DNA from: an uncultured Intestinimonas sp.
GTDB lineage: Bacteria > Bacillota > Clostridia > Oscillospirales > Oscillospiraceae
Direction of reading: 5' to 3'
DNA length: 64,000 bases
Assembly (NCBI RefSeq): GCF_944387725.1
Contig: NZ_CALXGA010000002.1
Span: forward strand, 2,602-66,601
In this document: piece after piece, positions 14,726 through 50,367 of the stretch
How the letters are laid out: every line of letters begins with the position of its first letter
How positions within the stretch are numbered: position 1 is the first letter of the stretch
Translations under genes and position numbers: made by a program
Notes under the pieces: model-generated
What the model saw: the letters and a program-made list of their open reading frames with translations, nothing else
Database searches by the model: none
What the model was told of the DNA's origin: nothing

Positions 14726-17425
14726 TCATTCATCTGGATCGAAGGGTGGAACCTCCAGGCTCTGAGGGACGGCGTCTCCCTCAAACTCCAGCTCCTCGGG
14801 GACAGGCTCGGGAGCCTTGTTGATCAGGCCCTGCTTGAACTGCATCTCCTGCCACTGCTCCTTGGTGATGAGGAGCTGCCGGGGCTTGGAGCCCTCGAAG
14901 GGGCCCACCACGCCCTTCTCCTCCATCTGATCCACCAGCCTAGCGGCCCGGGAGTAGCCCAGCTTCAGCCGCCGCTGGAGCATGGAGACCGAGGCCATGC
15001 CGGTCTCCACCACCACCTCGATGGCGGCGGGGAGGAGCTCGTCGTACTCGTTGCCCGCCTCTTCTGGGGGGGCGCCGCCCACGCCCTTGCCCTGCTTGTC
15101 CTTTTCGGCGGCATGGCGCTCGATCTCGTGGATGACCGACTCGTCGTACTCCACGGTACTCTGATCCTTGATAAAGCCCACCACGGCGGCCACCTCCTCG
15201 TCGGAGATGAGGCAGCCCTGGACCCGCTGGGGCTTTCCGGAGCCAAGAGGGAAGTAGAGCATGTCGCCCCGGCCCACCAGCTTTTCGGCGCCCTGGGTGT
15301 CCAGGATGATCCGGGACTCCAGGGCGGAGGCCACAGCAAAGGCGATGCGGGAGGGGATATTGGCCTTCATCAGGCCGGTAATGACGTCGGCCGAGGGGCG
15401 CTGGGTGGCGATGATGAGGTGCATTCCGGCGGCGCGGCCCATCTGGGCCACCCGGCAGATGGATTCCTCCACCTCCTTGGCAGCCACCAGCATAAGGTCG
15501 GCCAGCTCGTCGATGACTACCACGATCTGGGGCATCTTCTCCATGCCCTCCGTCTTGGCCGCGTGGGCGTTGTAGGAGGCCAAGTCCCGGACTCCGATCT
15601 CGGAGAAGGAACGGTAGCGCTTCATCATCTCGGTGACCGCCCACTGGAGGGCCCCGGCGGCCTTCTTGGGGTCGGTGACCACGGGGATGAGCAGGTGGGG
15701 GATGCCGTTGTAAATGCCCAGCTCCACCATCTTGGGGTCCACCATAATGAGACGGACCTCCTCCGGGGTAGCCTTGTAGAGCAGGGAGATGATAAGGGAG
15801 TTGGTGCACACCGACTTGCCCGAACCGGTGGTGCCGGCGATGAGCAGGTGGGGCAGCTTGGCAATGTTGCCCACAATGCAGTTGCCGGCGATGTCCTTGC
15901 CCACAGCGAAGGCCACCTTGGAGGGGTGGTCCCGGAAGGCCTTGGAGTCGATGACCTCGTGGATATGGACGGGGCTCACCAGCTTGTTGGGCACCTCGAT
16001 GCCCACAGTGGCGATCTTGTCTGGGATGGGGGCGATGCGGACGCCGGTGGCCCCCAGGGCCAGGGCAATGTCGTCGGAGAGGTTGGTGAGCTTGTTGAGC
16101 CGGACCCCCTGGTCCAGCTCCACCTCATACCGGGTCACCGAGGGCCCTCTGGTTACATCGGAGATCCGGGCCTCGATGCCGAAGGATCGGATGGTCTCGG
16201 CCAGCCGCTCCTGGTTGAGCTTCAGCTCGGCCTGAGCTCCGGCCTCCACACCGCCGCTGCCCTCTACCAGGAGGGAGACCGGCGGATACTGGTAGGCGGC
16301 GGGGGCGGGCTCCGAGAGGGTTTTTGCAATGTCCTGCTCCACCTCGGCGGCGGCGTTCTGGGTATCCTTGGTGGTCACCTTGGGCACCGCAGGCTCCCGC
16401 TGAATCTCCGGCAGGGGAGGGGCCGGGGGTTCCTCCTCCGGCAGGACCGGCGGCTCCTCGGGGATCGGGATGGGGGCCGGGGCAACCGGCGGCGCCTCCG
16501 CCTGAGGCGGGACTGGGTCTGGAGCCGGGGGCTCCTCCGTCTCCGGAACGGGGGCTTCCATGGGCCGTCCACCGGTCAACACCTGGTCTGGAGGCAGAAC
16601 CCCAGCCTTGCGGTTGAACAGGCGATCCTTCTTGGGGGTGAAGGGCAGGGGAGACTTGGGCCGCTCCGGCTGGGGGGGGAGCTCCGGCCCATCGTCCACC
16701 GGAATGTCGATGGCGGCTCGCCGCCTGGCGGCAGGCCGCTTAGGGGCAGGGGGCGGCGCCGGGGCGTCCTCTTCGTCCTCTTCCTCGTACTCATATTCGG
16801 CCCAGGTCCGGGAGCGGACAGCATCCACCAGATCCGGGACGGAGAGATGGAAAGCCCCCAGCACCATGAGGAGCTGGAGCAGGATCAGAATGACTCCCGT
16901 GCCGATGCCGCTGAACGCCACACGCAGTCCTTCGGCCAGCAGTCCGCTGACCACTCCGCCGCAGGACATCTCCAAGCCATGGGTCCATAGGCCCTGAATG
17001 GCCGAAATCCGAAAGGAGAAGGTTCCCCGGTAGAGAAAGAGGTGGAGGATAGCACCCATGACCACGGGGGTCAGCAGGGCGCAGCACAGCCGCAGACGGA
17101 CGGGGCGTCCCCGGTGGAAGGCCAGTATGTAGCTGGCCACCAACAGCATGGGAGTGGTCAGCCAGAAGCCAAAGCCGATCAGCCCCTTCAGCAGACCGCA
17201 GAAGAAGTGGATGAAGAGGGCCTCAATCTGAAAATACCCAAAGGCGGAGAAAAAGGCCAGCAGCAGGCAGACCACCGCTCCCACCTCCCGGCGGATGGGC
17301 TTGGGCTGTGCCGCGGCCCTGCTCCGGCTGCCCCTTCCCTTCCGGGAGGAGGAGGCGCTCCGCTTCCCGGAGGAAGCGGTTCCCGAGTGCGCTCCGCCGG
17401 AGCTTTTCTTTTGTGTGGATGCCAT
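14726..17425 (-). CDS. ftsK: FtsK/SpoIIIE DNA translocase
   Basis: N-terminal TM region, Pro-rich linker, GTTGSGKS, IDELADLM, gamma domain SMLQRRLKLGYSRAARL. Confidence 0.97.
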   Translation of the reverse strand: MASTQKKSSGGAHSGTASSGKRSASSSRKGRGSRSRAAAQPKPIRREVGAVVCLLLAFFSAFGYFQIEALFIHFFCGLLKGLIGFGFWLTTPMLLVASYILAFHRGRPVRLRLCCALLTPVVMGAILHLFLYRGTFSFRISAIQGLWTHGLEMSCGGVVSGLLAEGLRVAFSGIGTGVILILLQLLMVLGAFHLSVPDLVDAVRSRTWAEYEYEEEDEEDAPAPPPAPKRPAARRRAAIDIPVDDGPELPPQPERPKSPLPFTPKKDRLFNRKAGVLPPDQVLTGGRPMEAPVPETEEPPAPDPVPPQAEAPPVAPAPIPIPEEPPVLPEEEPPAPPLPEIQREPAVPKVTTKDTQNAAAEVEQDIAKTLSEPAPAAYQYPPVSLLVEGSGGVEAGAQAELKLNQERLAETIRSFGIEARISDVTRGPSVTRYEVELDQGVRLNKLTNLSDDIALALGATGVRIAPIPDKIATVGIEVPNKLVSPVHIHEVIDSKAFRDHPSKVAFAVGKDIAGNCIVGNIAKLPHLLIAGTTGSGKSVCTNSLIISLLYKATPEEVRLIMVDPKMVELGIYNGIPHLLIPVVTDPKKAAGALQWAVTEMMKRYRSFSEIGVRDLASYNAHAAKTEGMEKMPQIVVVIDELADLMLVAAKEVEESICRVAQMGRAAGMHLIIATQRPSADVITGLMKANIPSRIAFAVASALESRIILDTQGAEKLVGRGDMLYFPLGSGKPQRVQGCLISDEEVAAVVGFIKDQSTVEYDESVIHEIERHAAEKDKQGKGVGGAPPEEAGNEYDELLPAAIEVVVETGMASVSMLQRRLKLGYSRAARLVDQMEEKGVVGPFEGSKPRQLLITKEQWQEMQFKQGLINKAPEPVPEELEFEGDAVPQSLEVPPFDPDE

Positions 17426-37237: not shown

Positions 37238-37524
37238 GCACCCTGGAAGCTGTCATGCTGATTTGCTTTGGAGCCGCCTGGCCGTTTTCCATCTATCGGT
37301 CCGCCACATCAAAATCGACCAATGGCAAAAGCCTTGCCTTTTTGCTGGTGCTGATTCTGGGATATCTTGCGGGCATTTTGAATAAGATTTATTTCAACTA
37401 TGATGTGGTTCTGTATCTGTATATTCTGAACCTGATAATGGTCTCCACGGACGCCCTGCTCTGGCTCCGCAACAGAAGATTGGAAAAGCTCCGTCACACA
37501 CAAGACAGTCCAGTCACAAAATGA
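37234..37524 (+). CDS. Small PQ-loop/SemiSWEET-like membrane protein
   Basis: CFGAAWPFSI, TNGKS, three hydrophobic segments. Confidence 0.7.
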   Translation: MSTLEAVMLICFGAAWPFSIYRSATSKSTNGKSLAFLLVLILGYLAGILNKIYFNYDVVLYLYILNLIMVSTDALLWLRNRRLEKLRHTQDSPVTK

Positions 37525-37528
37525 GCTC

Positions 37529-37578
37529 AAAAAGCGCCACGAAGAAGTGCGATCACCGCATCTCTTCGTGGCGCTTTT
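37529..37578. terminator. Bidirectional terminator
   Basis: AAAAGCGCCACGAAGA...TCTTCGTGGCGCTTTT between convergent genes. Confidence 0.75.
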
Positions 37579-37619
37579 ATCATGCGTATTGGGAGTCTTA
37601 TTGGGATTGACGCACAGCT

Positions 37620-38861
37620 TTACACAGAGGCCAGGACCTTTTTCAGCTTGGCAAAGCGGGGGAGGGAGTGCTCCTTGGGCCGGTCCGGCTCCCCTTGAAT
37701 GAGGGGAAGCACATAGTCGATGAAGGGCTGCTCCACGCCGTTGCCCGCGGCGTTGATCCACTCCCGGGGCACCTTTTTCTCCACGTTGGCCACGATGTCC
37801 AGGGGCTGGAGGACCGCCTTGCAGGTGTATTTACCGTTGTCCCGCGTACACTCGAACGCCACCATCTTGTCGGTCTCGCCGGCCACAGCAGACTCCACAG
37901 CTACACGGCCGGCCATTTTGGCCTCCTCCACGTCGGTGTGGGAAGCCAGATGGGACCCGCAGCGCTGGAGCAGAGAGAGTTCAATGCCCCGGACCTTGGC
38001 GCCGGTGCGCTGCTTGATAAGATCGGCCAGCTTTACCGCCAGGCCGCCCAGCTGAGCGTGGCCGAAGCCGTCGGTGGCGGAGGTCTCCGCCTCGGAGACA
38101 AAGCGGCCGTCGGCGTAGTGGATGCCCTCGGAGACAGCCACCATGCACTTGCCGGTCTTGTCGTAAATGGCGGTGACATCGGTAATGAACTGGTCCAGGT
38201 CGAAGTCTACCTCGGGGAGGTAGATGAGGTCGGGCCCGCAGCCGGCCCAGGTGGCCAGGGCGGCGGATCCAGCCAGCCACCCGGCGTGACGGCCCATGAT
38301 CTCGACGACGGTCACCATGCCGGTGTCGTAGACGTGGGCGTCATGCCAGACCTCCATGCAGGAGGTGGCGATATACTTGGCGGCGCTGGCAAAGCCGGGG
38401 CAGTGGTCGGTGCCGTTGAGGTCGTTGTCAATGGTTTTGGGGATGCCCATAATGCGGCACTCGTAGCCTACCTTCTGCATATACTTGGAAATCTTGTTGC
38501 AGGTGTCCATGGAATCGTTGCCGCCGTTGTAGAAGAAGTAGCGCACATCATACTTCTTGAAAATCTCCAGGATGCGCTTGTAGTCGGTGTCATCCTGGTC
38601 GGGGTCAGAGAGCTTGTAGCGGCAGGAGCCCAGGGCGGAGGAGGGGGTGTTCTGGAGCAGCTCCAGCTCCTTGGGGTCCTCCTGACCCATATCGTACAGC
38701 TTATCGTCCAGAACACCCTTAATTCCGTGAGCAGCGCCCAGCACCCGGGTGATGCAGTCGGCCTTCAGGGCCGCCTGGATCGCGCCCTGGGCGCTGGCGT
38801 TGATGACAGAAGTGGGGCCGCCGGACTGCCCGATGATGCATGCGCCTCGAAGTTCGGTCAT
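37620..38861 (-). CDS. pfp: Phosphofructokinase, probably pyrophosphate-dependent
   Basis: QSGGPT, GGNDS and PKTIDND (Asp and Lys at the positions typical of PPi-PFK). Confidence 0.85.
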   Translation of the reverse strand: MTELRGACIIGQSGGPTSVINASAQGAIQAALKADCITRVLGAAHGIKGVLDDKLYDMGQEDPKELELLQNTPSSALGSCRYKLSDPDQDDTDYKRILEIFKKYDVRYFFYNGGNDSMDTCNKISKYMQKVGYECRIMGIPKTIDNDLNGTDHCPGFASAAKYIATSCMEVWHDAHVYDTGMVTVVEIMGRHAGWLAGSAALATWAGCGPDLIYLPEVDFDLDQFITDVTAIYDKTGKCMVAVSEGIHYADGRFVSEAETSATDGFGHAQLGGLAVKLADLIKQRTGAKVRGIELSLLQRCGSHLASHTDVEEAKMAGRVAVESAVAGETDKMVAFECTRDNGKYTCKAVLQPLDIVANVEKKVPREWINAAGNGVEQPFIDYVLPLIQGEPDRPKEHSLPRFAKLKKVLASV

Positions 38862-39007
38862 GTTTGGTCCTCCAATCATACCATTCGTATCATTTTGGAA
38901 AAACTTTCATGTGAAAGTTCATTCTGCGCAAATATCATATCATAACCTCTTGCATTTATCAACTATTGCTGGTAAAATTAGAAAAGAAAAAGAGGGGACG
39001 TCCCTCT

Positions 39008-39162
39008 CGGCTTTGTTTGAAACTTGCCGGTGTGCCCGGCGGCGGGGATTTTGGCCGATGGCAGGCAGTTCCGACCCAGGAACCCCCGGATTTCAAAGGG
39101 AATTGTACTGTCCAGGGGAAAATCTGTCCATCGGACATGCTGACATCTTTCAAATGAGGCCG
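39008..39162. mobile_element. Diverged MITE copy (reverse orientation) in the fba leader
   Basis: CGGCTTTGTTTGAAA...TTTCAAATGAGGCCG ends; interior collinear with the reverse complement of copy 1. Confidence 0.7.
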
Positions 39163-39203
39163 CACGGATTCTTTGCCAAATATGATAAAAGGAGTTGAGA
39201 CAT

Positions 39204-40172
39204 ATGCCTCTGGTCACTTCAGCGGAGATGTTCAAGAAGGCCTACGACGGCGGGTATGCCATCGGTGCGTTCAATGTCAATAATATGGAGATCGTGCAGG
39301 GCATTACCGAGGCCGCCCGGGACCTGAGCGCCCCCCTGATCCTCCAGGTCTCCAAGGGGGCCCGGGCCTACGCCAACCACACCTATCTGGTGAAGCTGGT
39401 GGAGGCCGCCGTCATCGAGTGCCCCAACATTCCCATTGTGCTTCATCTGGACCACGGCCCCGACTTCGAGACCTGCAAGTCCTGTATCGACGGCGGCTTC
39501 ACCTCCGTGATGATCGACGCCTCCTCCAAGCCCTTTGCTGAAAACATCGCCATCACCAAGCAGGTGGTGGAGTACGCCCATGACCACGGTGTTGTGGTGG
39601 AGGCCGAGCTGGGCGCCCTGGCCGGGATTGAGGACGATGTGAAGGTCTCCGCCGAGGAGTCCCACTACACACACCCAGAGGAGGTGGAGGAGTTCGTCTC
39701 CAAGACGGGTTGCGACTCCCTGGCTATCGCCATCGGCACCAGCCACGGCGCCTACAAGTTCACCGCTGATCAGTGTACCCGCAATGAGAAGGGGGAGCTG
39801 GTACCCCCGCCCCTGCGCTTCGACATTTTGGAGGAGGTCTCCAAGCGTCTGCCCGGATTCCCCATCGTGCTCCACGGATCTTCCTCTGTGCCTCAGGAGT
39901 ATGTGAAGATGGTGAACGAAAACGGCGGCAAAATGCCTGACGCCGTTGGCATTCCCGAGGAGCAGCTCCGCAGGGCCGCCGCGATGTCCGTGTGCAAGAT
40001 CAATATCGACTCTGACCTTCGTCTGGCCATGACTGGCACCATTCGGAAGTTCTTCCACGATCACCCCGACAAGTTCGACCCCCGGGAGTACCTGAAGCCC
40101 GCCCGGGCCGCCATCAAGGAACTGGTGGCCCACAAAATCGTGGACGTGCTGGGCTGTGATCACAAGGCCTGA
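39204..40172 (+). CDS. fba: Class II fructose-bisphosphate aldolase
   Basis: HLDHG, VEAELG, IGTSHGAYK, VLHGSS, KINIDS; promoter TTGCAT-17-TAAAAT at 38950-38978. Confidence 0.96.
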   Translation: MPLVTSAEMFKKAYDGGYAIGAFNVNNMEIVQGITEAARDLSAPLILQVSKGARAYANHTYLVKLVEAAVIECPNIPIVLHLDHGPDFETCKSCIDGGFTSVMIDASSKPFAENIAITKQVVEYAHDHGVVVEAELGALAGIEDDVKVSAEESHYTHPEEVEEFVSKTGCDSLAIAIGTSHGAYKFTADQCTRNEKGELVPPPLRFDILEEVSKRLPGFPIVLHGSSSVPQEYVKMVNENGGKMPDAVGIPEEQLRRAAAMSVCKINIDSDLRLAMTGTIRKFFHDHPDKFDPREYLKPARAAIKELVAHKIVDVLGCDHKA

Positions 40173-40203
40173 TATATCCCAGTTTCATGGAAAATAAACA
40201 AGG

Positions 40204-40236
40204 AGCGGCGGGACCCAAGTAAGGGTCCCGCCGCTT
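40204..40236 (+). terminator. Terminator after fba
   Basis: AGCGGCGGGACCC-N5-GGGTCCCGCCGCT followed by TT. Confidence 0.7.
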
Positions 40237-40265
40237 TCGTCGGCAGGGGAGGGGAGAGGCCCTGT

Positions 40266-40916
40266 TTACCGGATGCGCTCCAGCAACTCCTCCGGGGTAT
40301 CTACCAGGGCAGAGGCCCCATGTTCCAGCAGAAACTGCCGGTCCCGGAAGCCCCAGGTGACCGATAAGCAGGGGAGGCCCGCATTGGCTGCCGTCTGAAT
40401 ATCCACGTCGGAGTCTCCCACATAGACCGCGCCGGAGGCCGGAACCTGAAGGGCCTCCAGGCAGCTGATCACCAGGTCTGGCGCGGGTTTTTTCCGAAGG
40501 CCCGGCCTCTCACCTAGGACGACAGGGAGGAGGGTCCCAAAATAGTCCCGGCACAGCCCTTTGACCGCCCCGTCAAATTTGTTGGAGACCACCGCCGTCT
40601 GGCAGCCCTGGGTCTGGAGGGCTTTCAGCAGCTCCGGGATACCTGGATAGGGCCGGGTTTTCTGCTGCATATTGGCAAGATAGTGGGCCTTGAAGTCCGC
40701 CAGACACCGCTCTGTTTCCTCGGGGGAGGCGCCCGCCGGCACCGCCCGGCGGATCAGATTCCCCACACCGTTGCCCACAAACCGGCGGAGCTCCTCCAGC
40801 GAACGCTCTGGAAACCCATGGGCATCCAGGGCAAAGTTGGTGCTGTCCGCCAGGTCCTCCAGAGTATTCAAAAGCGTTCCGTCCAAATCAAAAATCACGG
40901 CTTGATAACGCGACAA
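40266..40916 (-). CDS. HAD-family hydrolase (phosphoglycolate phosphatase-like)
   Basis: FDLDGTL, VSNK, KKPAP, YVGDSDVD; TTG start after AGGAGG. Confidence 0.9.
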   Translation of the reverse strand: MSRYQAVIFDLDGTLLNTLEDLADSTNFALDAHGFPERSLEELRRFVGNGVGNLIRRAVPAGASPEETERCLADFKAHYLANMQQKTRPYPGIPELLKALQTQGCQTAVVSNKFDGAVKGLCRDYFGTLLPVVLGERPGLRKKPAPDLVISCLEALQVPASGAVYVGDSDVDIQTAANAGLPCLSVTWGFRDRQFLLEHGASALVDTPEELLERIR

Positions 40917-41007
40917 GATCGTTTCCCTCCTTTGTGTGTGGACAGTACCGCCCCTGGATATGGACGCATAGCATGGAGCAGTACCTGTGAAAGGATTGAT
41001 CCGCGCC

Positions 41008-41565
41008 ATGCCATCCCTGATCATTCCCTATAACCGAAGGGCGGCCGTCCGCTACGCCCACCGCTGGGCCAGCAGCCGCAATCCAAACTACTACGACTAT
41101 GAGAAGCTCGGGGGTGACTGTACCAATTTTGCCTCCCAGTGCCTCTACGCCGGGACCAAGGTGATGAACTTCACCCCTACCTACGGCTGGTATTACCTCG
41201 ACGCCAACAACAAGTCGCCCTCCTGGACGGGCGTCCCGTATTTTTATAACTTTATCACCAGAGAGGAGAAAACCCCCGGCCCTTTCGGCCTGGAGAGCAC
41301 CCTAGACAACCTGGAGCCCGGTGACTTTGTCCAGCTCCGCTTCAACGGGGAGGTCTTCGGCCACACGCCCATCATCGTGGCCATGGGAACCCCGCCAACC
41401 CTGGAAAATACCCTTGTCGCCGCCCACTCCTATGATGCGGACTGGAGGCCTTTGAGCACCTACTTTTTCCAAGAAATCCGCTTCCTGCACATCCTGGGGG
41501 CCTATCCGCCGGAGGGATTCGGGGAGCTGCTGCTTCCGCTCTTTCGCCCCTCCGCCTCCTCCTGA
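41008..41565 (+). CDS. Amidase_6 (YhbB-like) domain protein
   Basis: YNRRAAVRYAHRW, GGDCTNFASQCL; CATAGCAT SigE/K-like -10 upstream. Confidence 0.82.
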   Translation: MPSLIIPYNRRAAVRYAHRWASSRNPNYYDYEKLGGDCTNFASQCLYAGTKVMNFTPTYGWYYLDANNKSPSWTGVPYFYNFITREEKTPGPFGLESTLDNLEPGDFVQLRFNGEVFGHTPIIVAMGTPPTLENTLVAAHSYDADWRPLSTYFFQEIRFLHILGAYPPEGFGELLLPLFRPSASS

Positions 41566-42596
41566 TGGCCGGAGGACCTGACCGCCTTGGGGGGGGCCTT
41601 TCCAGGCTTGAGCTTCCCAAGCGGGTTGGCTTTGGCCGCGATGCGCAGTTCAGCATTGTCCACATGGGTGTAAATCTGTGTGGTGTTCAGGTGGTCGTGG
41701 CCAAGGACCTCCTGAAGGGTCCGAACGTCCACGCCGTTTTGAAGCATCAGCGTGGCGGCAGTGTGCCGGAGCTTGTGAGGGGAGTACTGGGAGCTGTCCA
41801 GTCCAGAGGCCAACAGGTGCTTTTTCACCAGTTTCTCCACCGCCGCCTTGGAGATGCGTTTGCGCAGCCGGCTGAGGAACAGGGCGTTTTTGTCGATGAC
41901 TTCCTGGCCGCCCCGGACCGCCAGATAGTTGTCCAGGGCACTCCGGCAGGCGTCGTTGAGGTAGACCACCCGCTCTTTGTTGCCCTTGCCCAGCACCCGC
42001 AGGCTGTCCTCCCGGATGTCGGTGAGATTCAGCCCGATGAGCTCCGAAATCCGCAGCCCGCAGTTGAGGAACAGGGTCAGGATGCAGTAGTCCCTCTCGC
42101 GGTACGGCCCGTCTATAGATTCCAATAACTGGATGCTGCTGTCCAAATCCAAATATCGGGGCAGGGATTTCTTCAGCCGGGGCGAATCCAGATCCTGCAT
42201 GGGATTTTCCTGGAGGAGCTTGGCCTTTACCGCGAGATACTTATAAAAGGAGCGGATGGCGGCAATCTTTCGGGCCCGGGAGGCCGGACTCAGCCCATAG
42301 CCGGTGTTGGGACTGTTGGGATGCTGGGCCCGGTCCCGGCTCAGGTAGGCCATATAGGAGTAGACATCGGTGATGGTCACCGAAGCCACCAGGTCCAAGT
42401 CCACATCATCAATAGAGACGTTGTCCAGTTCGGCCGTCCTCGGCGCCAGGCCTTTTTCAATCTTGAGATAGCGGAAGAAATTCCGCAGGTCCAGAAAATA
42501 CTCGTCCACCGTTCTGCGGGAATGTCCCTGAATGGTCTCATGGTAAATGAGAAAATCCCGCAGAATGGGGGGCGCTTCCGTTCGATAGTCTGTCAT
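41502..42596 (-). CDS. Xer-family tyrosine recombinase (364 aa)
   Basis: Full catalytic set: GLRISE, GKGNKER, HKLRH, LGH, TTQIYTH; flanked by core genes. Confidence 0.92.
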   Translation of the reverse strand: MTDYRTEAPPILRDFLIYHETIQGHSRRTVDEYFLDLRNFFRYLKIEKGLAPRTAELDNVSIDDVDLDLVASVTITDVYSYMAYLSRDRAQHPNSPNTGYGLSPASRARKIAAIRSFYKYLAVKAKLLQENPMQDLDSPRLKKSLPRYLDLDSSIQLLESIDGPYRERDYCILTLFLNCGLRISELIGLNLTDIREDSLRVLGKGNKERVVYLNDACRSALDNYLAVRGGQEVIDKNALFLSRLRKRISKAAVEKLVKKHLLASGLDSSQYSPHKLRHTAATLMLQNGVDVRTLQEVLGHDHLNTTQIYTHVDNAELRIAAKANPLGKLKPGKAPPKAVRSSGHQEEAEGRKSGSSSSPNPSGG

Positions 42597-42642
42597 GTGC
42601 AGCCGGCGGCGGAGACTCTGAAAAAGGTGGCTTCCCCTCCTT

Positions 42643-42676
42643 CGTAGTAAACAAAATTTTTATTTTGTTTACTACG
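42643..42676. other. Perfect AT-rich palindrome, candidate dif-like recombination site or operator
   Basis: CGTAGTAAACAAAAT-TTTT-ATTTTGTTTACTACG, 46 bp upstream of the xer start codon. Confidence 0.55.
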
Positions 42677-42817
42677 CAATCTCCCGCCGCATTCCTCCTC
42701 CCTGGCAGGCCTCCAAAGCAAGCTGCCTGATGGGCAGCTTGCTCCGACGGCGTTAATAACCGGTTCTGCGTTTTGTCTGTGATTGGCAATGTACGCTTCT
42801 GTCATTTTGTGTCTCTT

Positions 42818-44179
42818 TTATAAGATGGCGGACAGAGCTTCCCGGATGTTGCGGACTCGGACAAGCTGGAGTCCGTCCGGCTCAGTGAGCTTGCCGCTGT
42901 TTCTGGCCGGAATCAGGCACTGGGTAAAGCCCAGCCGGCGCACCTCAGAGAGCCGCTGGCCTAAGGCGCTCACTGAGCGCAGCTCGCCGGTAAGCCCCAC
43001 CTCACCGATAGCGGCCAGGGTTCCGGGCACGGGCTTGTCCCGAAAGCTGGAGGCCATGGCGATGACAGCGGCCAGGTCGGCGGCGGGCTCGTCCAGGCTC
43101 AGGCCGCCGATGACATTGAGATAGGCGTCGCATCCGCTTACCAGAAGTCCGCCCCGCTTCTCCAGCACCGCCAGCAGCAGCATGGCCCGGTTGTAGTCAA
43201 ACCCGTTGCTGGTGCGTCTGCCGTTCCCATAAGCGCTGGGGGCCAGAAGAGCCTGAATTTCCGCCAGCACCGGCCGAACTCCCTCCATAACGCAGGTCAC
43301 ACAGGTGCCCGGCGTATCTAGGGGCCGTCCCGCCAGCAGGGTCTCCGAGGGGTTGGGCACCTGGGTCAGGCCGCTGTCGGCCATTTCGAAGACGCCGATT
43401 TCGTTGGTGGCGCCGAAGCGGTTTTTGGCTGAGCGCAGAATGCGGTAGGACATGTGCGGCTCCCCCTCGAAGTAGAGCACACAGTCCACAATGTGCTCAA
43501 GCACCTTGGGGCCGGCGATGGAGCCCTCCTTATTCACATGGCCGATGACGAAAACGGTGATTCCCTCTCCTTTTGCCAGCTGCATCAGGGCCATGGTACA
43601 CTCCTTAACCTGGCCCACGCTGCCCGGAGAGGTGGTCAGTTCCCCGCTGAACATGGTCTGGATGGAGTCCACAATGACCACATCCGGCCGCAGGGAGCGA
43701 ATGGCCTCCAGAATCTCCCCCAGATCGGTCTCAGCCAGCAGATAGAGGGACTGGCTCCGCACCCCCAGCCGCTCCGCCCGGAGCTTGATCTGCCGCTCGG
43801 ACTCCTCCCCAGAGACATAGAGCACCTTGGAAAACCGGCAGAGATTGTCGCAGATTTGGAGCATCAAGGTGGATTTTCCGATGCCGGGGGCGCCCCCCAC
43901 CAGGACCAGAGAACCCTGCACCGCTCCCCCACCCAGGACCCGATCCAGTTCGGAAAGGCCGGTAGAAAAGCGCAGCTCATCGCTGGTCTCGATCTCCGTA
44001 ATGGGACGGGGACGGCGGCCTCCCCCACTGCGGACCGCAGCGGTAGGAGCCGTTTTTTTCTTAGTCTCTGCGGGCTGTTCCACCATGGTGTTCCAGCTTC
44101 CGCAGGCGGGGCACTTCCCCACCCATTTGGGGGTTTCATTCCCGCATTCCGTACAATAAAAGACTGTCTTGGCTTTCAA
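42818..44179 (-). CDS. radA: DNA repair protein RadA/Sms
   Basis: C4 zinc finger, GAPGIGKST, KNRFG motif. Confidence 0.96.
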   Translation of the reverse strand: MKAKTVFYCTECGNETPKWVGKCPACGSWNTMVEQPAETKKKTAPTAAVRSGGGRRPRPITEIETSDELRFSTGLSELDRVLGGGAVQGSLVLVGGAPGIGKSTLMLQICDNLCRFSKVLYVSGEESERQIKLRAERLGVRSQSLYLLAETDLGEILEAIRSLRPDVVIVDSIQTMFSGELTTSPGSVGQVKECTMALMQLAKGEGITVFVIGHVNKEGSIAGPKVLEHIVDCVLYFEGEPHMSYRILRSAKNRFGATNEIGVFEMADSGLTQVPNPSETLLAGRPLDTPGTCVTCVMEGVRPVLAEIQALLAPSAYGNGRRTSNGFDYNRAMLLLAVLEKRGGLLVSGCDAYLNVIGGLSLDEPAADLAAVIAMASSFRDKPVPGTLAAIGEVGLTGELRSVSALGQRLSEVRRLGFTQCLIPARNSGKLTEPDGLQLVRVRNIREALSAIL

Positions 44180-44915
44180 GGGTGCCCTCCCCTTCTGAAT
44201 CATTTTCCGAGTCGCTGAGATAGGCGCAGGCCAAAGCCGCAGCGATTTTGGTCTGATAACTGCCGGTCTGGAGCAGGGCGTCCTCCTCCGGGTTGGAGAG
44301 AAAACCGCACTCCACCAAAATGGCACGGCAGGTGATGTGGGTCATCAGGTAGACAGTATTGGGCAGACGGGCGGCCTGGCGTCTGTTTTCCGGGTCCAGA
44401 GCCAGCCGCAGCAGCTCCTGGGTATGCTGGGCCAAACCCAGACTGCTGGCTTCGTCGGCATAAAACACCTGTGCGCCGTGGTATTGGGTGCTGCCGCTAT
44501 AGGTGTTTTGGTGAATGCTGATGACGGTGGCATTGGGCACAGCCTCAATTTGGGCCGCCCGGTTCTGGAGGTCGGATCGCTTCTTCTCCCTGAGCGTCTG
44601 AGCCTCTGGGTCATGGAGAGAGATGTCCTCGGTGCGGAGCATGACCACATCGGCCCCAAAGAGACCGAGAATAAGGTCCAGCCGTTGGGCCACTGCCAGA
44701 TTTACCTGGCTCTCCACCGTTCCAGTCTGGGAGACCGCGCCCCCGTCTTCCCCGCCATGTCCGGCATCAATTACCACGGTGGAGCGGGAAAACCGGGCCG
44801 GATGGGCCATGGTTGGGACGGACTCCTTCTCATAAAACAGAAAAAAGCCGGTGCTCACGGCCAAAAGCACCGTCACCGCGATAGATAAAACCCGGATCAG
44901 GGCAGGATGTTTCAT
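44136..44915 (-). CDS. cwlD: N-acetylmuramoyl-L-alanine amidase, CwlD-like
   Basis: IDAGHGGEDGG, SIHQN, LVECGFLSN. Confidence 0.8.
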   Translation of the reverse strand: MKHPALIRVLSIAVTVLLAVSTGFFLFYEKESVPTMAHPARFSRSTVVIDAGHGGEDGGAVSQTGTVESQVNLAVAQRLDLILGLFGADVVMLRTEDISLHDPEAQTLREKKRSDLQNRAAQIEAVPNATVISIHQNTYSGSTQYHGAQVFYADEASSLGLAQHTQELLRLALDPENRRQAARLPNTVYLMTHITCRAILVECGFLSNPEEDALLQTGSYQTKIAAALACAYLSDSENDSEGEGTLESQDSLLLYGMRE

Positions 44916-45597: not shown

Positions 45598-45790
45598 ATG
45601 TTTTCTTATGAGAAAAAGCTGCAATATCCCGTCAAAATCAAGACGCCAAATCCCAAGCTGGCTTCCTTTATCATCAGCCAGTACGGTGGGCCGGACGGTG
45701 AACTGGGCGCTTCCCTGCGCTATCTGAGCCAGCGGTACGCCATGCCTTACCCGGAGCTCAAGGCGCTGCTCACCGACATCGGCACCGAGG
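45598..45790 (+). pseudogene. cotJC: cotJC 5' half (Mn-catalase family, ~64 codons), interrupted by an integrated element
   Basis: MFSYEKKLQYPV...QYGGPDGELGASLRYLSQRY...LLTDIGTE, then similarity stops before the expected E-x-x-H. Confidence 0.9.
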
Positions 45791-47372
45791 GGCTGTTCTG
45801 GGCCGGCTGCCCCAGCCGCTCCAGCACGAAGGTCCAGGTCCTGGGCAGCAGGTTCAGCTTCACCTCCACCCGCCGGTCCGGGTAGACCACCATGTGGTCC
45901 AGGATGGTTTTATAGAAGGTCTCGCTGGCCTGCTCCCCCTGGAGCAGGGCGGTCACCCTCCTCTTGATGCACCGTTCCAGCTCGCCCTTGTCGTAGGCCA
46001 CCTCCGCCCCGGCCTTCGCGGCGGACAGGCGCTCCTGGAGCTGAGCCATCTCCCGGTCATAGCGCTCCGTCATCTGCCGCATCTCTGCCTTGGTGATGTC
46101 CTGGGCGAAGAAGGCGTCCAGGGCGGTCTCCCGCTTTTTGGCCAGGCGATCCAGATCCAATTCCAGGGCCTTCTGGTTTTCACTGCCTCCCCCCTCCCCT
46201 GCCCGGATGGCCTCCAGGACGATGGCGGTCACGCTGCGGACCATCGCCTCACTGTCCAGCGGAAGGGATTGAAGGGACTGCCGCAGCAGCTCCATGGCCG
46301 TCTCGTCCCGGAGGGTCCGCCCCACATCGCAGCCCACCCGGTTGCCCTGGGGGTCCAGATGGGCCCTCCCCTCCCTGGTGGCGGTGTAGCAGCTCCAGCG
46401 CCGGCTGTAGCTGCCGTCCTTCCGCTTCTTCTTCCGGGACACGAAGCTGGCCCCGCACACCCCGCACTTGATCCTGCCGCTGAACACATAGCGGTTGGAG
46501 TGCCCCGCCCCCAGCTCGCCGTTTCGGTTTCGCTTTTTCAGCTCCGCCTGGACCGTATCCCACAACTCCCGGTCAATGATGGGCTCGTGGTGGTCCCGCA
46601 GGATAACCAGGTCCTCCTCTCCGTGGTTGTACTTTTTGGCATGAGAGAGGTAGTCCGGAGTGATGGTTTTCTTCTGGACCAGATCGCCGATGTACTTTTC
46701 ATTCTTCAGAATTTTAACGATGTGGGTGTTGCTCCACTTGACGTTGCCCCGGTGGGTGCGGTATCCGGCCTCCCGCAGCTCCCGGGCAATGACCGTAGTG
46801 CCCTTTTTCTCCACGCCGTACTTGTGAAAGATGAGCCTGACGATCTCCGCCCCTTTGGGCTCCACTGTCAGGCGTCCATCCTTTACATTATATCCCAGCA
46901 GGGACCTGCCGAAGACCACCCCCTGTTCCATCCGCCGGGTCTGGCCCCACTTCACCCGGCTGGAGGTCTTGCGGCTCTCCTCCTGGGCCAGGGAGCCCAT
47001 GATGGACAACCGAAGCTCGGCGTCCGGCTCCAGAGAGTGGATGCCGTCGTTGAGGAAGACCACCCCAACCCCGATGGCCTTGAGCTCCCGGGTGTAAGCG
47101 ATGGTGTCCAGGATGTTCCGGGAGAACCGGCTGACCTCCTTGGTTAGGATCAGGCGGAACTTTCCCCGCCGGGCGTCCTGAATCATCTGGTTGAAGGCGG
47201 CCCGCTTCTTGGTGGAGGTGCCGGTGATGCCCTCGTCCGCGTAGACCTGGTACAGCTCCCACTCCGGATGGCGGTCGATGTACTCCCGAAAGTACCGCTG
47301 CTGGTTCTCAAAGGAGTTGGCCTGATCCTCCTTGTCGGTGGAGACCCGGCAGTAGGACGCTACATAGATCAT
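45747..47372 (-). CDS. Large serine recombinase (resolvase, recombinase and zinc-ribbon domains)
   Basis: YCRVST catalytic Ser, YADEGITGT, SRFSRN, AQEESRKTS, NEKYIGD, HEPIID, CGVCG. Confidence 0.96.
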   Translation of the reverse strand: MIYVASYCRVSTDKEDQANSFENQQRYFREYIDRHPEWELYQVYADEGITGTSTKKRAAFNQMIQDARRGKFRLILTKEVSRFSRNILDTIAYTRELKAIGVGVVFLNDGIHSLEPDAELRLSIMGSLAQEESRKTSSRVKWGQTRRMEQGVVFGRSLLGYNVKDGRLTVEPKGAEIVRLIFHKYGVEKKGTTVIARELREAGYRTHRGNVKWSNTHIVKILKNEKYIGDLVQKKTITPDYLSHAKKYNHGEEDLVILRDHHEPIIDRELWDTVQAELKKRNRNGELGAGHSNRYVFSGRIKCGVCGASFVSRKKKRKDGSYSRRWSCYTATREGRAHLDPQGNRVGCDVGRTLRDETAMELLRQSLQSLPLDSEAMVRSVTAIVLEAIRAGEGGGSENQKALELDLDRLAKKRETALDAFFAQDITKAEMRQMTERYDREMAQLQERLSAAKAGAEVAYDKGELERCIKRRVTALLQGEQASETFYKTILDHMVVYPDRRVEVKLNLLPRTWTFVLERLGQPAQNSPSVPMSVSSALSSG

Positions 47373-47581
47373 GGTGTGTGTTTCCCCTCCCCTTCTGGTG
47401 TGAAATGGATTTTCCCTTTACAGATTTCTTCCGCATATCTGTATTGCACCTCACTGAGAATGCCCTCGTCTTTCAGCCCGAGCAGGATGGCCCGCTGGAG
47501 CATAGACCAGAACGCCGGGTCCGTCTCTTGTGTGATGAATTTCTCATCTGTGACGCCCAGCAGTCTGATCCGATCCCCCAT
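47369..47581 (-). CDS. Small hypothetical protein (70 aa) coupled to the recombinase
   Basis: ATGA stop/start overlap, purine-rich RBS; CATACCCT -10-like box at 47604-47611 (minus). Confidence 0.65.
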   Translation of the reverse strand: MGDRIRLLGVTDEKFITQETDPAFWSMLQRAILLGLKDEGILSEVQYRYAEEICKGKIHFTPEGEGKHTP

Positions 47582-47806
47582 CCCGCATGCCCCCTTTGGT
47601 TCCAGGGTATGCATGGGACAAGACCAGATTTCTTAGCGGATGTGCCCCCTTCCCTTTCAGCGCATCGTCGGATGTGAATTGGATTTGGATGCTGTCCTCA
47701 TGATGTGTGCCTCCTTCCATGCGGAGGGGAGCGCAGCGGTGGTTAAACGGAGCCTGCCGCACTCCCCCACGAGTCCATTGCCTTTTTTCATCTCCACGAG
47801 GCCGGG

Positions 47807-49114
47807 TCACATGGTGAGCTTCCAAGTGGGATCTTCCTCATGGTCGTCGGTCCTGTGGCCCATGGCCAGCCGCTTCTGCCTCTGCCGCTCCCGTGTCTCG
47901 AAATCTACCGGGCCGGGCCTCAGGGTGTAGTCATCCACTGGTCCACTGACCTGAGCACGCTCCAGAGCGTGCTCAAGTCGTACCAGCCCGCCCACAAGGC
48001 CAGCAGCCCTGGCGGGATCAGCAGGAGATCCTGAGACGGGCGGGGGAGCGAAGGCTTCGGCAGCCTGGGCGGTGAGAAACAACGCTTGCTCCTCCTCCCA
48101 GCCGGTGGGAGCCTCCGCCGCAGCTCCGCCACCACTCACGTCAGGGCCTCCCACTGTGCCAGGGTGGGGAGTTCCCCACCTGGGTGGAAATCTCCCGGGA
48201 CAGGGCCGCCAGCGCCCCAACGCTGGCCTCTAGACGGTCCAACCGCTCCAGCAGCGCCTCCCACTCCTGGGGCGTGGGACTGGTCTGGGGACCGCCCTGT
48301 CCATTCGGCAGATTCCGCCGCTTCAGCTCCTCCAGAGACAAGTTCTGCTCGAATGCGGAACTCACGCTCCATCCTCTCCTTCCTGTACTTTTCCTCAGAG
48401 AACCGGTCATCCCGGCACCTCATGCCCTCCGGCGTGGTGTAGGTGATGCTCTTCCAGCCGTCCGTCCAGCGGACCTCACAGCCCTCGCTCCGCATCAGGG
48501 AGAGGAACTCCTCCCGGCTGGCGGCGTATACCATACACTGGTCGATGGTGTTTCATCAGCCGGAACTTCCAGATCTAGCCCTTGGCGGCGGAGCGGTACT
48601 CCCTGGCACCCATCCGTTTTTCCCGAACCTGTTTCTGCGGCGGCGGCAAAATTTCCAGCCCATGGGCAAGGCAGATCTCGTCGTTGGCCATTCAGTGGGC
48701 CTGGAGATCGGCGACGCTCTGGTGGAGCTTTCTTCCACCCCGGAAGCTGACGCTGTTCACCACCAGATGGTTGTGGAGATGCTCTGTGTCCACATGGGTG
48801 GCTACCAGCACCTCGAAATCCAGGAACTCCCGCTGGGCCAGCTCCAGGCTGATGACGTGGACCTCCTGGGGCGTCAGGTCGTCCGACTCCAAAAAGGACT
48901 GGACCAAGTGGTAGTACTGCCACCCGTCCGTTTTTCGGAACCGCTTCTTGGTGAGCTGCATCTCAGAGAGGGCACTTTGCGTGGTACAGTTCCAGCCGGT
49001 CACCAGCCGCTGTCCTTCCCACAGCGTCTTTTCCTTCTGGCTGACGTAGCGGGTGATACCGCCCAGCGCACCCCGGCCTCCACCACGATTTTTGATGGCG
49101 GTGAAGGTGGCCAT
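47807..49114 (-). pseudogene. MOBP-type relaxase, multiply frameshifted
   Basis: YVSQKEKT, YYHLVQSF, ATHVDTEHLHNH, KSITYTTPEG spread over several frames. Confidence 0.85.
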
Positions 49115-49135
49115 CTCGTCGACACCTCCTCCATA

Positions 49136-49552
49136 TCATTCGCTTCCGGCCTTATCGTCCGAAAGCTCACTCATTCTAGGGCGTCTCATCTCCCCACAAA
49201 AGCGGTTCACCGCTTTTGTGGGGGTTCCGTTTACCGCTTTTAACAACTGCCGGAGCTGTTCGCTGACCTGCCCGTAGCCATCCGCTAGCCTGTCACCGTA
49301 CACGACGGGGATCCTCCCCATGTTGGCCAGGGTGGTAAGCTGGTTCAGGTTCCGCCCCTGGCCTTTCAGGTCAGTGATCACTTTATCCAGGCCGTCCACC
49401 TGGACAATCTTTTTGCCCAGCCCACAGAAACACAGGTAGTCGGTGACCGTCATGTCCGCCTGCTTCGCCCGCGCCCGGATGGCCGCTTTGACCCGGGGTG
49501 TCACCAGGAGGGTGATGAGCTCCGTTTTCTTTGCTGCTCTCTGCATGCTCAC
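49136..49552 (-). CDS. mobC: MobC relaxosome accessory protein
   Basis: RHH-like N-terminus and GRNLNQLT motif directly upstream of the relaxase. Confidence 0.85.
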   Translation of the reverse strand: MSMQRAAKKTELITLLVTPRVKAAIRARAKQADMTVTDYLCFCGLGKKIVQVDGLDKVITDLKGQGRNLNQLTTLANMGRIPVVYGDRLADGYGQVSEQLRQLLKAVNGTPTKAVNRFCGEMRRPRMSELSDDKAGSE

Positions 49553-49559
49553 ACCTCTC

Positions 49560-49650
49560 TCCCCTTCAGGGGCTGGGGGACCAAGGCGGCACCCCAGAGT
49601 CTATGGCCGGCGTATCGGACGCGATGCTTGCCCTCCCTAACGGGAGAAGT
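49560..49650. other. Candidate oriT
   Basis: Directly upstream of mobC; ATGCTTGCCC at ~49624-49633 resembles the GCTTG^CC nic site of pC221-type MOBP origins. Confidence 0.45.
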
Positions 49651-49813
49651 TTTCCTTCTGTCGGTGCGTGCTTCCTTGGGTCGGAGCTTTGGGGAGGGTC
49701 GATAGGGTCGATCTCCGGGGCCTCCGGCGCATCGGCACTTTCGGCACTGTGAAGCTCCACAATCCGCCTCCCGTTGCTGCGCCGGACCGAGGCTACAATT
49801 CCGGCTTTCCCTA

Positions 49814-49977
49814 AGGGCTTGTTTGAAAAAAGTCAACATGCCCAATCAGCGGGTCTTTTGCCCCCTGGACGGCGCAATTTTTCCTTGAAATCCGCCAGGA
49901 TTCCTGCGAAAAAATTGCTTGCCAGCGGCCCAAAATCCCTCGCTGCTGGACACATCGCCAATTTTCAAACAAGCCCT
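49814..49977. mobile_element. MITE copy 2
   Basis: AGGGCTTGTTTGAAAA...TTTTCAAACAAGCCCT; nearly identical to 21585-21750. Confidence 0.88.
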
Positions 49978-49978
49978 A

Positions 49979-50367
49979 GTGATTGACGAGGTCGGGTACA
50001 TGCAGTTGAACCGCCAGGAGGCAGAATTGTTATTCCGGTTGGTTTCAGAGCGCTACGAGCACGGCAGTGTGATCCTCACCAGCAACAAATACTTCAGCGA
50101 CTGGGGCGAGCTGCTCAGCGATGATATCCTGGCCACTGCTCTCCTAGACCGGCTGCTCCACCACGCCCACGTGGTGAATATCCGGGGCCAGACCTACCGG
50201 CTGCGGGACCGCCTCAAGGCCGGCGTCTAACCGGTCCCACTGGCCGAAATTCCGGCGCACGGATAACTAGCAGGTAGGTTTCCGGCACCACAAGACCGGC
50301 GATGTGATTCCGGCGGTTGGGTCAGCTTCTTCCCGGCGATTCCGCTTTTTCTACTCCGGCGTTGACA
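49979..50367 (+). mobile_element. istB: IS21-family remnant: istB 3' end and right end
   Basis: VIDEVGY, LTSN, TALLDRLLHH; repeated TTCCGGC units ending in TTGACA. Confidence 0.82.

Follow-up and report, generated by a model that had tools for sequence, protein, structure and literature searches.

In Streptococcus and Lactococcus, one longer Xer protein, XerS, serves a site, difSL, that usually lies just upstream of its gene and at the GC-skew switch, with an AAAA...TTTT inner core (PMC1914069, PMC5357621). The clostridial locus described here shares these features, service by one Xer being likely here, and the AAAA...TTTT core given in a preliminary description of this DNA is consistent with the difSL half-sites quoted in PMC5357621. 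It differs in that its arms are perfect and equal in length, whereas those of difSL are imperfect with an extra base in one arm, in that the site can be 76 kb from the gene and XerD usually co-exists, and in the protein itself, which is 28% identical to streptococcal-type XerS, scores 160 bits against a cut-off of 267 with the XerS model (NF003462), and falls in a separate clade.

The XerH/difH system of Helicobacter and Campylobacter (PMC5241119) likewise combines a single enzyme (as is likely in Clostridia) with two arms and an asymmetric 6-bp centre, although the asymmetry of difH comes from an inserted base pair, while the clostridial arms are of equal length. By its description, XerL/dif of the Legionellales (PMC9765430) is similar in being a distinct clade overlooked by homology searches, with a single Xer (again likely in Clostridia) and long perfect arms, and in having come to light through an integrating element; the XerL gene, however, lies more than 400 kb from its site or on a plasmid, whereas the clostridial gene is usually adjacent. 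With the XerC/XerD (CodV/RipX)-dif system of Bacillus and other Bacillota (PMC5357621, PMC3025954), the locus shares the catalytic core and the arm-6-arm layout, but its arms are symmetric and variable between lineages, its Xer scores below both cut-offs, and we found neither xerC in the source genome nor canonical dif in the Oscillospiraceae tested. In mode of action the system is probably like XerS/difSL or XerL, with an Xer outside the XerS clade.

A full-text literature search, mostly without subscription papers, found no published description of the site or clade. Castillo 2017 does not mention Clostridia, and the accessible text of Smyshlyaev 2021 and of PMC5345009 contained nothing relevant. 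Supplement 2 of Kono 2011 (PMC3025954), in the part available, gives no site for two Clostridium genomes and places four other Clostridium sites 137 to 176 degrees from the skew switch, while the paper reports canonical, switch-located sites for several further Firmicutes that were assigned to the Clostridia at the time. As far as it could be consulted, this sole comprehensive survey of dif sites contains no switch-located Clostridium sites, and we found no earlier account of how clostridial chromosome dimers are unlinked. We consider it likely that the palindrome described below is the dif site of the source Oscillospiraceae and of much of the class Clostridia, recombined by the adjacent Xer alone, acting as four copies.

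A conserved palindrome and its probable recombinase

The window, a 64-kb stretch of DNA (G000:C2:2602-66601), comes from a source genome, G000, of 2.18 Mb in 116 contigs that is 85% complete. Its features are collected in Table 1.

Table 1. Positions of the candidate site, the neighbouring recombinase and associated features, numbered from the first nucleotide of the window.
Feature	Position	Strand	Remarks
FtsK/SpoIIIE motor domain	15392..15964	-	likely activator, 27 kb from the site; G000:C2:17993-18565
GC-skew switch (+ to -)	38655..40701	.	best break 39320; the 5-log-likelihood interval, 37282-44719, takes in the site
Amidase_6 gene	40987..41565	+	convergent, overlaps the xer 3' tail; domain match
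Clostridial Xer tyrosine recombinase	41502..42596	-	364 aa, conserved part ~1-335; PF00589 + PF02899
Helix codons 248-260	41817..41855	-	align with XerD MTRQTFWHRIK; residues 251 and 255 vary in step with positions 8 and 10 of the arms
One-sided purine flank	42634..42642	-	AAGGAGGGG as read on the - strand; columns 39-42 of sites
Candidate dif site	42643..42676	.	14-bp arms 42643-42656 and 42663-42676, asymmetric 6-bp centre 42657-42662
radA	42818..44326	-	upstream neighbour of xer; adjoins prophage-bearing loci of relatives too

The preliminary description had pointed out a catalytically complete recombinase, set among core genes 46 bp from a 34-bp perfect inverted repeat with 14-bp arms and an asymmetric 6-bp spacer, and each of these points held. 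The repeat is 100% complementary (42643-42657 against 42662-42676, 15 nt with 4 nt between, or equally 14-6-14), has an AAA-N6-TTT core and ends 46 bp upstream of the xer ORF start. R182, K204, H274, R277, H300 and Y309 are all present in Xer and do not vary in any of the 64 aligned orthologs, and radA, a cwlD-like amidase, Amidase_6 and a HAD hydrolase adjoin the gene. The emphasis on a long protein stands for the ORF but not for the family: relatives are mostly ~320 to 345 aa and their alignment with the window Xer ends at about residue 330 to 345, so that the last ~30 residues are a local tail over the convergent gene. Mobile-element remains at 45747-50230, 3 to 7 kb from the site and apparently unrelated to it, consist of a large serine recombinase (PF00239, PF07508, PF13408) and a short fragment of a relaxase.

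Palindromes per se are common in G000, which holds 242 perfect inverted repeats with arms of at least 13 nt, but this one is set apart by being single copy and conserved. In answer to a uniqueness check named beforehand, no second copy was found in the 85% complete genome even when 9 of the 28 arm bases were allowed to mismatch, and the palindrome was also the best and only G000 match of a covariance model, R1 (E 9.6e-8, with G000 in the training set). As a separate observation, G000 carries at least 13 copies of a REP-like family of perfect 30- to 42-bp palindromes that have CCCTAGGG at their centre and in many cases lie at the end of a contig (contigs C7, C8, C11, C17, C20, C26, C28, C46, C50, C68, C89 and C104).

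Upstream regions of orthologs were aligned, as the preliminary description had suggested, and the palindrome proved conserved. It was found at 26 of the 30 best loci of the family, the misses being three loci with the site on another contig and one with a 10-nt centre, and at 50 of 80 GTDB loci, where 5 of the 30 misses had less than 70 bp of upstream sequence. R1 matched 70 of the 80 genomes, essentially once each: 50 matches lay no more than 1.5 kb from the gene, 13 were 2.8 to 76 kb away, 6 were on another contig, and 1 was false; it gave no match in the other 10 and missed a known site in G278. The AAA-N6-TTT core is invariant in 71 aligned sites (alignment A1, 71 of 91 rows, leaving out near-duplicates and L137, L061 and L130, which comprised one false and two mis-oriented sites). 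The non-coding layout of dif sites in general, two arms on either side of a 6- to 8-bp centre, is that of the palindrome as well, with a single exception in G075 (L502, G075:C51), whose 10-nt centre is either an assembly error or a real variant.

Both arms change together. Two-sided changes occurred in 11 of 14 arm pairs, with a covariation of 0.43 compared to 0.11 for shuffled and at most 0.08 for slid alignments, and one-sided G-U changes were nearly absent in the inner pairs. Since the sites were chosen as palindromes, this pairing is not independent evidence; the variety of symmetric arms is what informs. Across 88 protein-site pairs, the protein column that ranked first was residue 251 in the case of arm base 8 and residue 255 in that of arm base 10. 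K255 is matched by C in 20 right arms and 19 left arms, out of 22 each. After correction for kinship, helix-arm covariation was not significant in an underpowered comparison (2 to 7 independent pairs, median p 0.125 to 1), and one of six such tests went both ways. XerH reads the outer arm through a helix of its catalytic domain (PMC5241119), and helix 248-260 of Xer may be the equivalent of that helix.

Outside the arms, the sites carry a one-sided purine flank, G, G, A and G occurring in columns 39 to 42 of 72, 70, 67 and 70 of 78 sites, respectively. The flank is tied to the orientation of the centre and not to that of the gene, which is on the same strand as the site in 52 cases and on the opposite one in 23; site orientation was assigned partly through the flank itself, in agreement with the first base of the centre, which is T in 77 of 78. 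It amounts to a GGGGAG motif directed away from the site, and is carried by Oscillospirales sites while being absent in some other Clostridia.

By sequence, the clostridial Xer is a separate clade, neither XerS nor XerC/XerD. It scores below the cut-offs of the XerC, XerD, XerA and XerS models, the closest being XerC and XerD with 226 and 213 bits, and matches XerH weakly at 61.6 bits (131 for XerD). In a quick tree of 87 rows without bootstrap, a single branch (SH-aLRT 99) unites 40 clostridial Xer rows with one plasmid copy and is separate from the XerS group (98) and from XerC/XerD (92); the order of branching between these clades is undecided in that tree because outgroup branches are long and XerH, XerL and XerA were left out. 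The earlier comparison with XerS and XerH does not extend to the protein, which is neither of the two. The gene is single copy in 144 of 150 genomes of the family and has a match at E 1e-40 or better in 176 of 251 genomes of the class, orthology being tree-checked for 40 rows and several families having no match.

Relatives also occur elsewhere. Clostridial plasmid and phage-like records encode some that are 42 to 49% identical, and one plasmid copy (L493) falls within the clade, with no R1 site in its 2.9 kb. Families f13 and f24, Clostridia without this clade, carry proteins branching with XerS (L229, L230 and L233, from f13, f24 and f51), and some other Bacillota (L223 to L228) score above the cut-off of the XerS model; single-Xer systems may therefore be more widespread still. 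PDB chain 9i5v_14, labelled RaiA, matches Xer recombinases over its first 300 residues and is possibly a mis-called or fused sequence.

One enzyme or two

That the palindrome is a dif site on which the window Xer acts seems to us very probable. The question is whether a second recombinase takes part, with the window Xer in the place of XerC and a spoIIM-linked XerD on the right arm. Such an XerD exists: G000 encodes a true one (334.4 bits, cut-off 329.6) beside a weak spoIIM match, and 63 of 80 genomes have a clear XerD, which often lies close to the terminus and often 1 to 100 kb away. The NCBI annotation, moreover, names these clostridial genes xerC, and the right arm, which bears the asymmetric flank, resembles the canonical XerD arm in the table of Kono (PMC3025954). 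Yet 14 of the 80 genomes have no XerD-like match beyond xer and 11 of these keep the site architecture, while in G179 (3 contigs, 97%) xer is the only PF00589 match, leaving no second tyrosine recombinase. Both arms covary together, tracking the Xer helix, whereas the XerD helix reads RQGFWK in 21 of 21 distinct loci despite differing arms, and Xer lies outside the XerC/XerD branch. We regard recombination by such a pair as unlikely, and action of Xer alone on the site as probable; it is likely and not more because XerD is encoded elsewhere in G000.

The preliminary description had proposed a single recombinase, which the 11 genomes that keep site and enzyme without XerD favour and the XerD of G000 does not. 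Of the canonical dif with xerC and xerD that it had named as counter-evidence, only XerD turned up. In G000 (85% complete) no xerC was found, xerD alone exceeding its cut-off; the six PF00589 matches are this xer, XerD, three apparent mobile-element integrases and one fragment. No canonical dif was found in G000 either, and the canonical pattern occurred in 0 of 8 XerD-bearing Oscillospiraceae, compared to 9 of 12 control Bacillota.

In some Clostridia (G278, G336, G380 and G395), a canonical-like site is present near the terminus as well. Such a second site, of the canonical type, lies near the xer 3' end at L140 (G336:C1:86010-86037) and at G278:C1:1658953. The G336 site has two arms of the XerD type and is symmetric, and G336 has another like it ~2 kb from its xerD (C1:189106); sites of this type could be served by XerD only. 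Lone XerD half-sites numbered 14 versus 7 for the control in G000 and 24 versus 6 in six GC-rich XerD-bearing flanks, with no signal in AT-rich genomes, an excess that is suggestive only. On G000 contigs C9 and C14, three exact arms of the XerD type stand alone, with no second arm beside them, and may be bound by XerD only. In B. subtilis, XerD unloads SMC independently of recombination (as cited in PMC13342612), and a comparable role could explain why Clostridia retain XerD.

The site and the replication terminus

The preliminary description had asked for a skew switch near 42.6 kb. The switch was found ~3 kb off: the site is 3.3 kb from the best break, which places it in the 5-log-likelihood interval but not in the narrower one of 2 log-likelihood units. 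Cumulative GC skew on contig C2 climbs to a peak at C2:41902 and then drops, and the two-segment break of C2 gives the largest gain (about 43) of the 24 G000 contigs longer than 30 kb. Purine motifs flip their polarity around this break, GGAGGGG occurring 33:7 on the left and 3:11 on the right. In eight Oscillospiraceae, no hexamer is more strongly polarised toward the site than GGGGAG (355 versus 64, a count that still includes Shine-Dalgarno and codon effects).

In all 16 Clostridia genomes with both genes on one near-complete contig (one of them, G007, placed by hand), xer lies 0.40 to 0.59 of the chromosome from dnaA. A locus far from the terminus, named beforehand as counter-evidence, was thus not what we found, by the skew switch as well as by the mid-chromosome position relative to dnaA.

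Genomes in which gene and site are separated are the most telling. In seven of them, all outside the R1 training set, the skew peak lay close to the site and not to the gene: +18 bp from the site in G248 (gene 67 kb off), +26 bp in G179 (22 kb), +36 bp in G339 (14 kb), -43 bp in G245 (15 kb), +509 bp in G378 (8 kb), +778 bp in G008 (76 kb) and -2092 bp in G359 (60 kb). Agreement to less than 50 bp is not an artefact of the window used, since the fetched spans measured 33 to 60 kb with the site near their centre. A distance of 4.6 to 31 kb between peak and site was measured in 8 genomes out of 24, most of the 8 having a weak skew; these comprise three weak-skew separated cases (G016, G084 and G232; 8 to 22 kb) and five unseparated genomes (4.6 to 31 kb).

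The switch lies at most 80 bp from the site in six genomes, which would also fit a replication-fork trap or an SMC-unloading site that Xer binds without recombining it, in line with the non-catalytic role of Xer in B. subtilis (citation in PMC13342612). Invariance of all catalytic residues, a 6-bp centre between two arms and the strand exchange required for the phage integration described below all speak against this reading, which we hold to be very unlikely as the main function; either activity could be an additional role of the site.

A mainly regulatory palindrome, be it an operator through which xer controls itself or a terminator hairpin behind radA, is highly improbable. The site does usually lie 20 to 200 bp upstream of the gene, its 81-nt region folds at a z of -5.2, and autoregulation has been speculated upon for difSL (PMC1914069). 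But both orientations relative to the gene occur, inner pairs show almost none of the one-sided G-U changes, the site serves as a prophage border, and it can be up to 76 kb from the gene yet at the skew switch. Because the skew peak tracks the site and not the distant gene, a terminus landmark is favoured over a mere operator, though the palindrome may have an additional operator role. That gene and site are a domesticated mobile-element module without a housekeeping role, as the clade members on clostridial plasmids might suggest, is scarcely tenable given a single copy in nearly all genomes of the family, core-gene neighbours and a place near the terminus in every genome measured.

The earlier inference that this is the clostridial chromosome dimer resolution site is hence supported by terminus position and a conserved palindrome, with neither canonical dif nor xerC found in the 85% complete G000. 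In the mechanism that we envisage for Xer acting alone on this dif site, each arm would be bound by one Xer subunit, the N-terminal domain contacting the inner arm bases and helix 248-260 the outer ones. The two sites of a chromosome dimer would synapse at the septum, where FtsK/SpoIIIE, probably steered by GGGGAG-type polar motifs, would trigger two strand exchanges across the 6-bp centre. The direction of the otherwise symmetric site would come from its asymmetric centre together with the one-sided purine flank, the flank hypothetically directing the translocase, and the spoIIM-linked XerD would do another job.

Microviruses at the site and biological meaning

In enterobacteria, integrase-less gokushoviruses of the IMEX type sit between one intact and one variant dif copy (PMC7062461); the consulted part of that study reports no prophages of this type outside enterobacteria. 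Only two Gram-positive hosts of microviruses are named in Kirchberger 2022, a paper in which dif and Xer do not occur as whole words. A scan of IMG/VR with the exact core returned 6 contigs, of which 4 were microviruses of 4.8 to 7 kb. Their capsid and Rep proteins match PHROGs, and no integrase was seen among their ORFs. One is flanked by two copies of the site with radA beyond, and another is followed by an xer ortholog. The core was present in 11 of 80 capsid relatives (0.24 expected by shuffling), a number that includes the 4 seeds and 6 close kin. A Rep-based viral search gave 3 loci only, and a loose viral pattern, discarded, gave more than 120 matches that were mostly due to chance.

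The cultured strain Pusillibacter faecalis MM59 has a microvirus prophage between radA and xer, in the same gene order as the window, bordered by one intact and one degenerate site copy. Among the paired centres of 5 doubly flanked prophages, the first three bases are shared in 3, the first only in 1 and all six in 1, a pattern consistent with integration by one pair of strand exchanges. These prophages differ from IMEX in their host, a Gram-positive anaerobe, and in the hijacked system, which is probably a single enzyme. Two records, L491 and L492 (Pusillibacter and Monoglobus), are filed as 500-kb plasmids, carry core genes and the terminus site, and look like chromosome pieces or chromids.

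A wider picture can be offered tentatively. Most Clostridia may have swapped XerC for a single-enzyme Xer system that would be the fourth in bacteria. Its perfectly symmetric dif would evolve in step with a single recognition helix, base for base, and its direction would be set by a translocase-guiding motif that lies in inverted orientation to one arm. The site would mark fork convergence to tens of bases, XerD would be left with a non-recombining job, and dif would be the entry door of gut microviruses into Gram-positive chromosomes.

For the Clostridia, a large class of gut, pathogenic and industrial anaerobes, a precise candidate dif site and a candidate enzyme are now proposed, and with MM59 a cultured strain with a resident prophage is available for testing them. 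The natural helix-to-base variants provide material for an Xer recognition code, and the site offers a neutral landing site at the terminus for genetics. For the abundant microviruses of the gut, the locus suggests both hosts and a route of integration.
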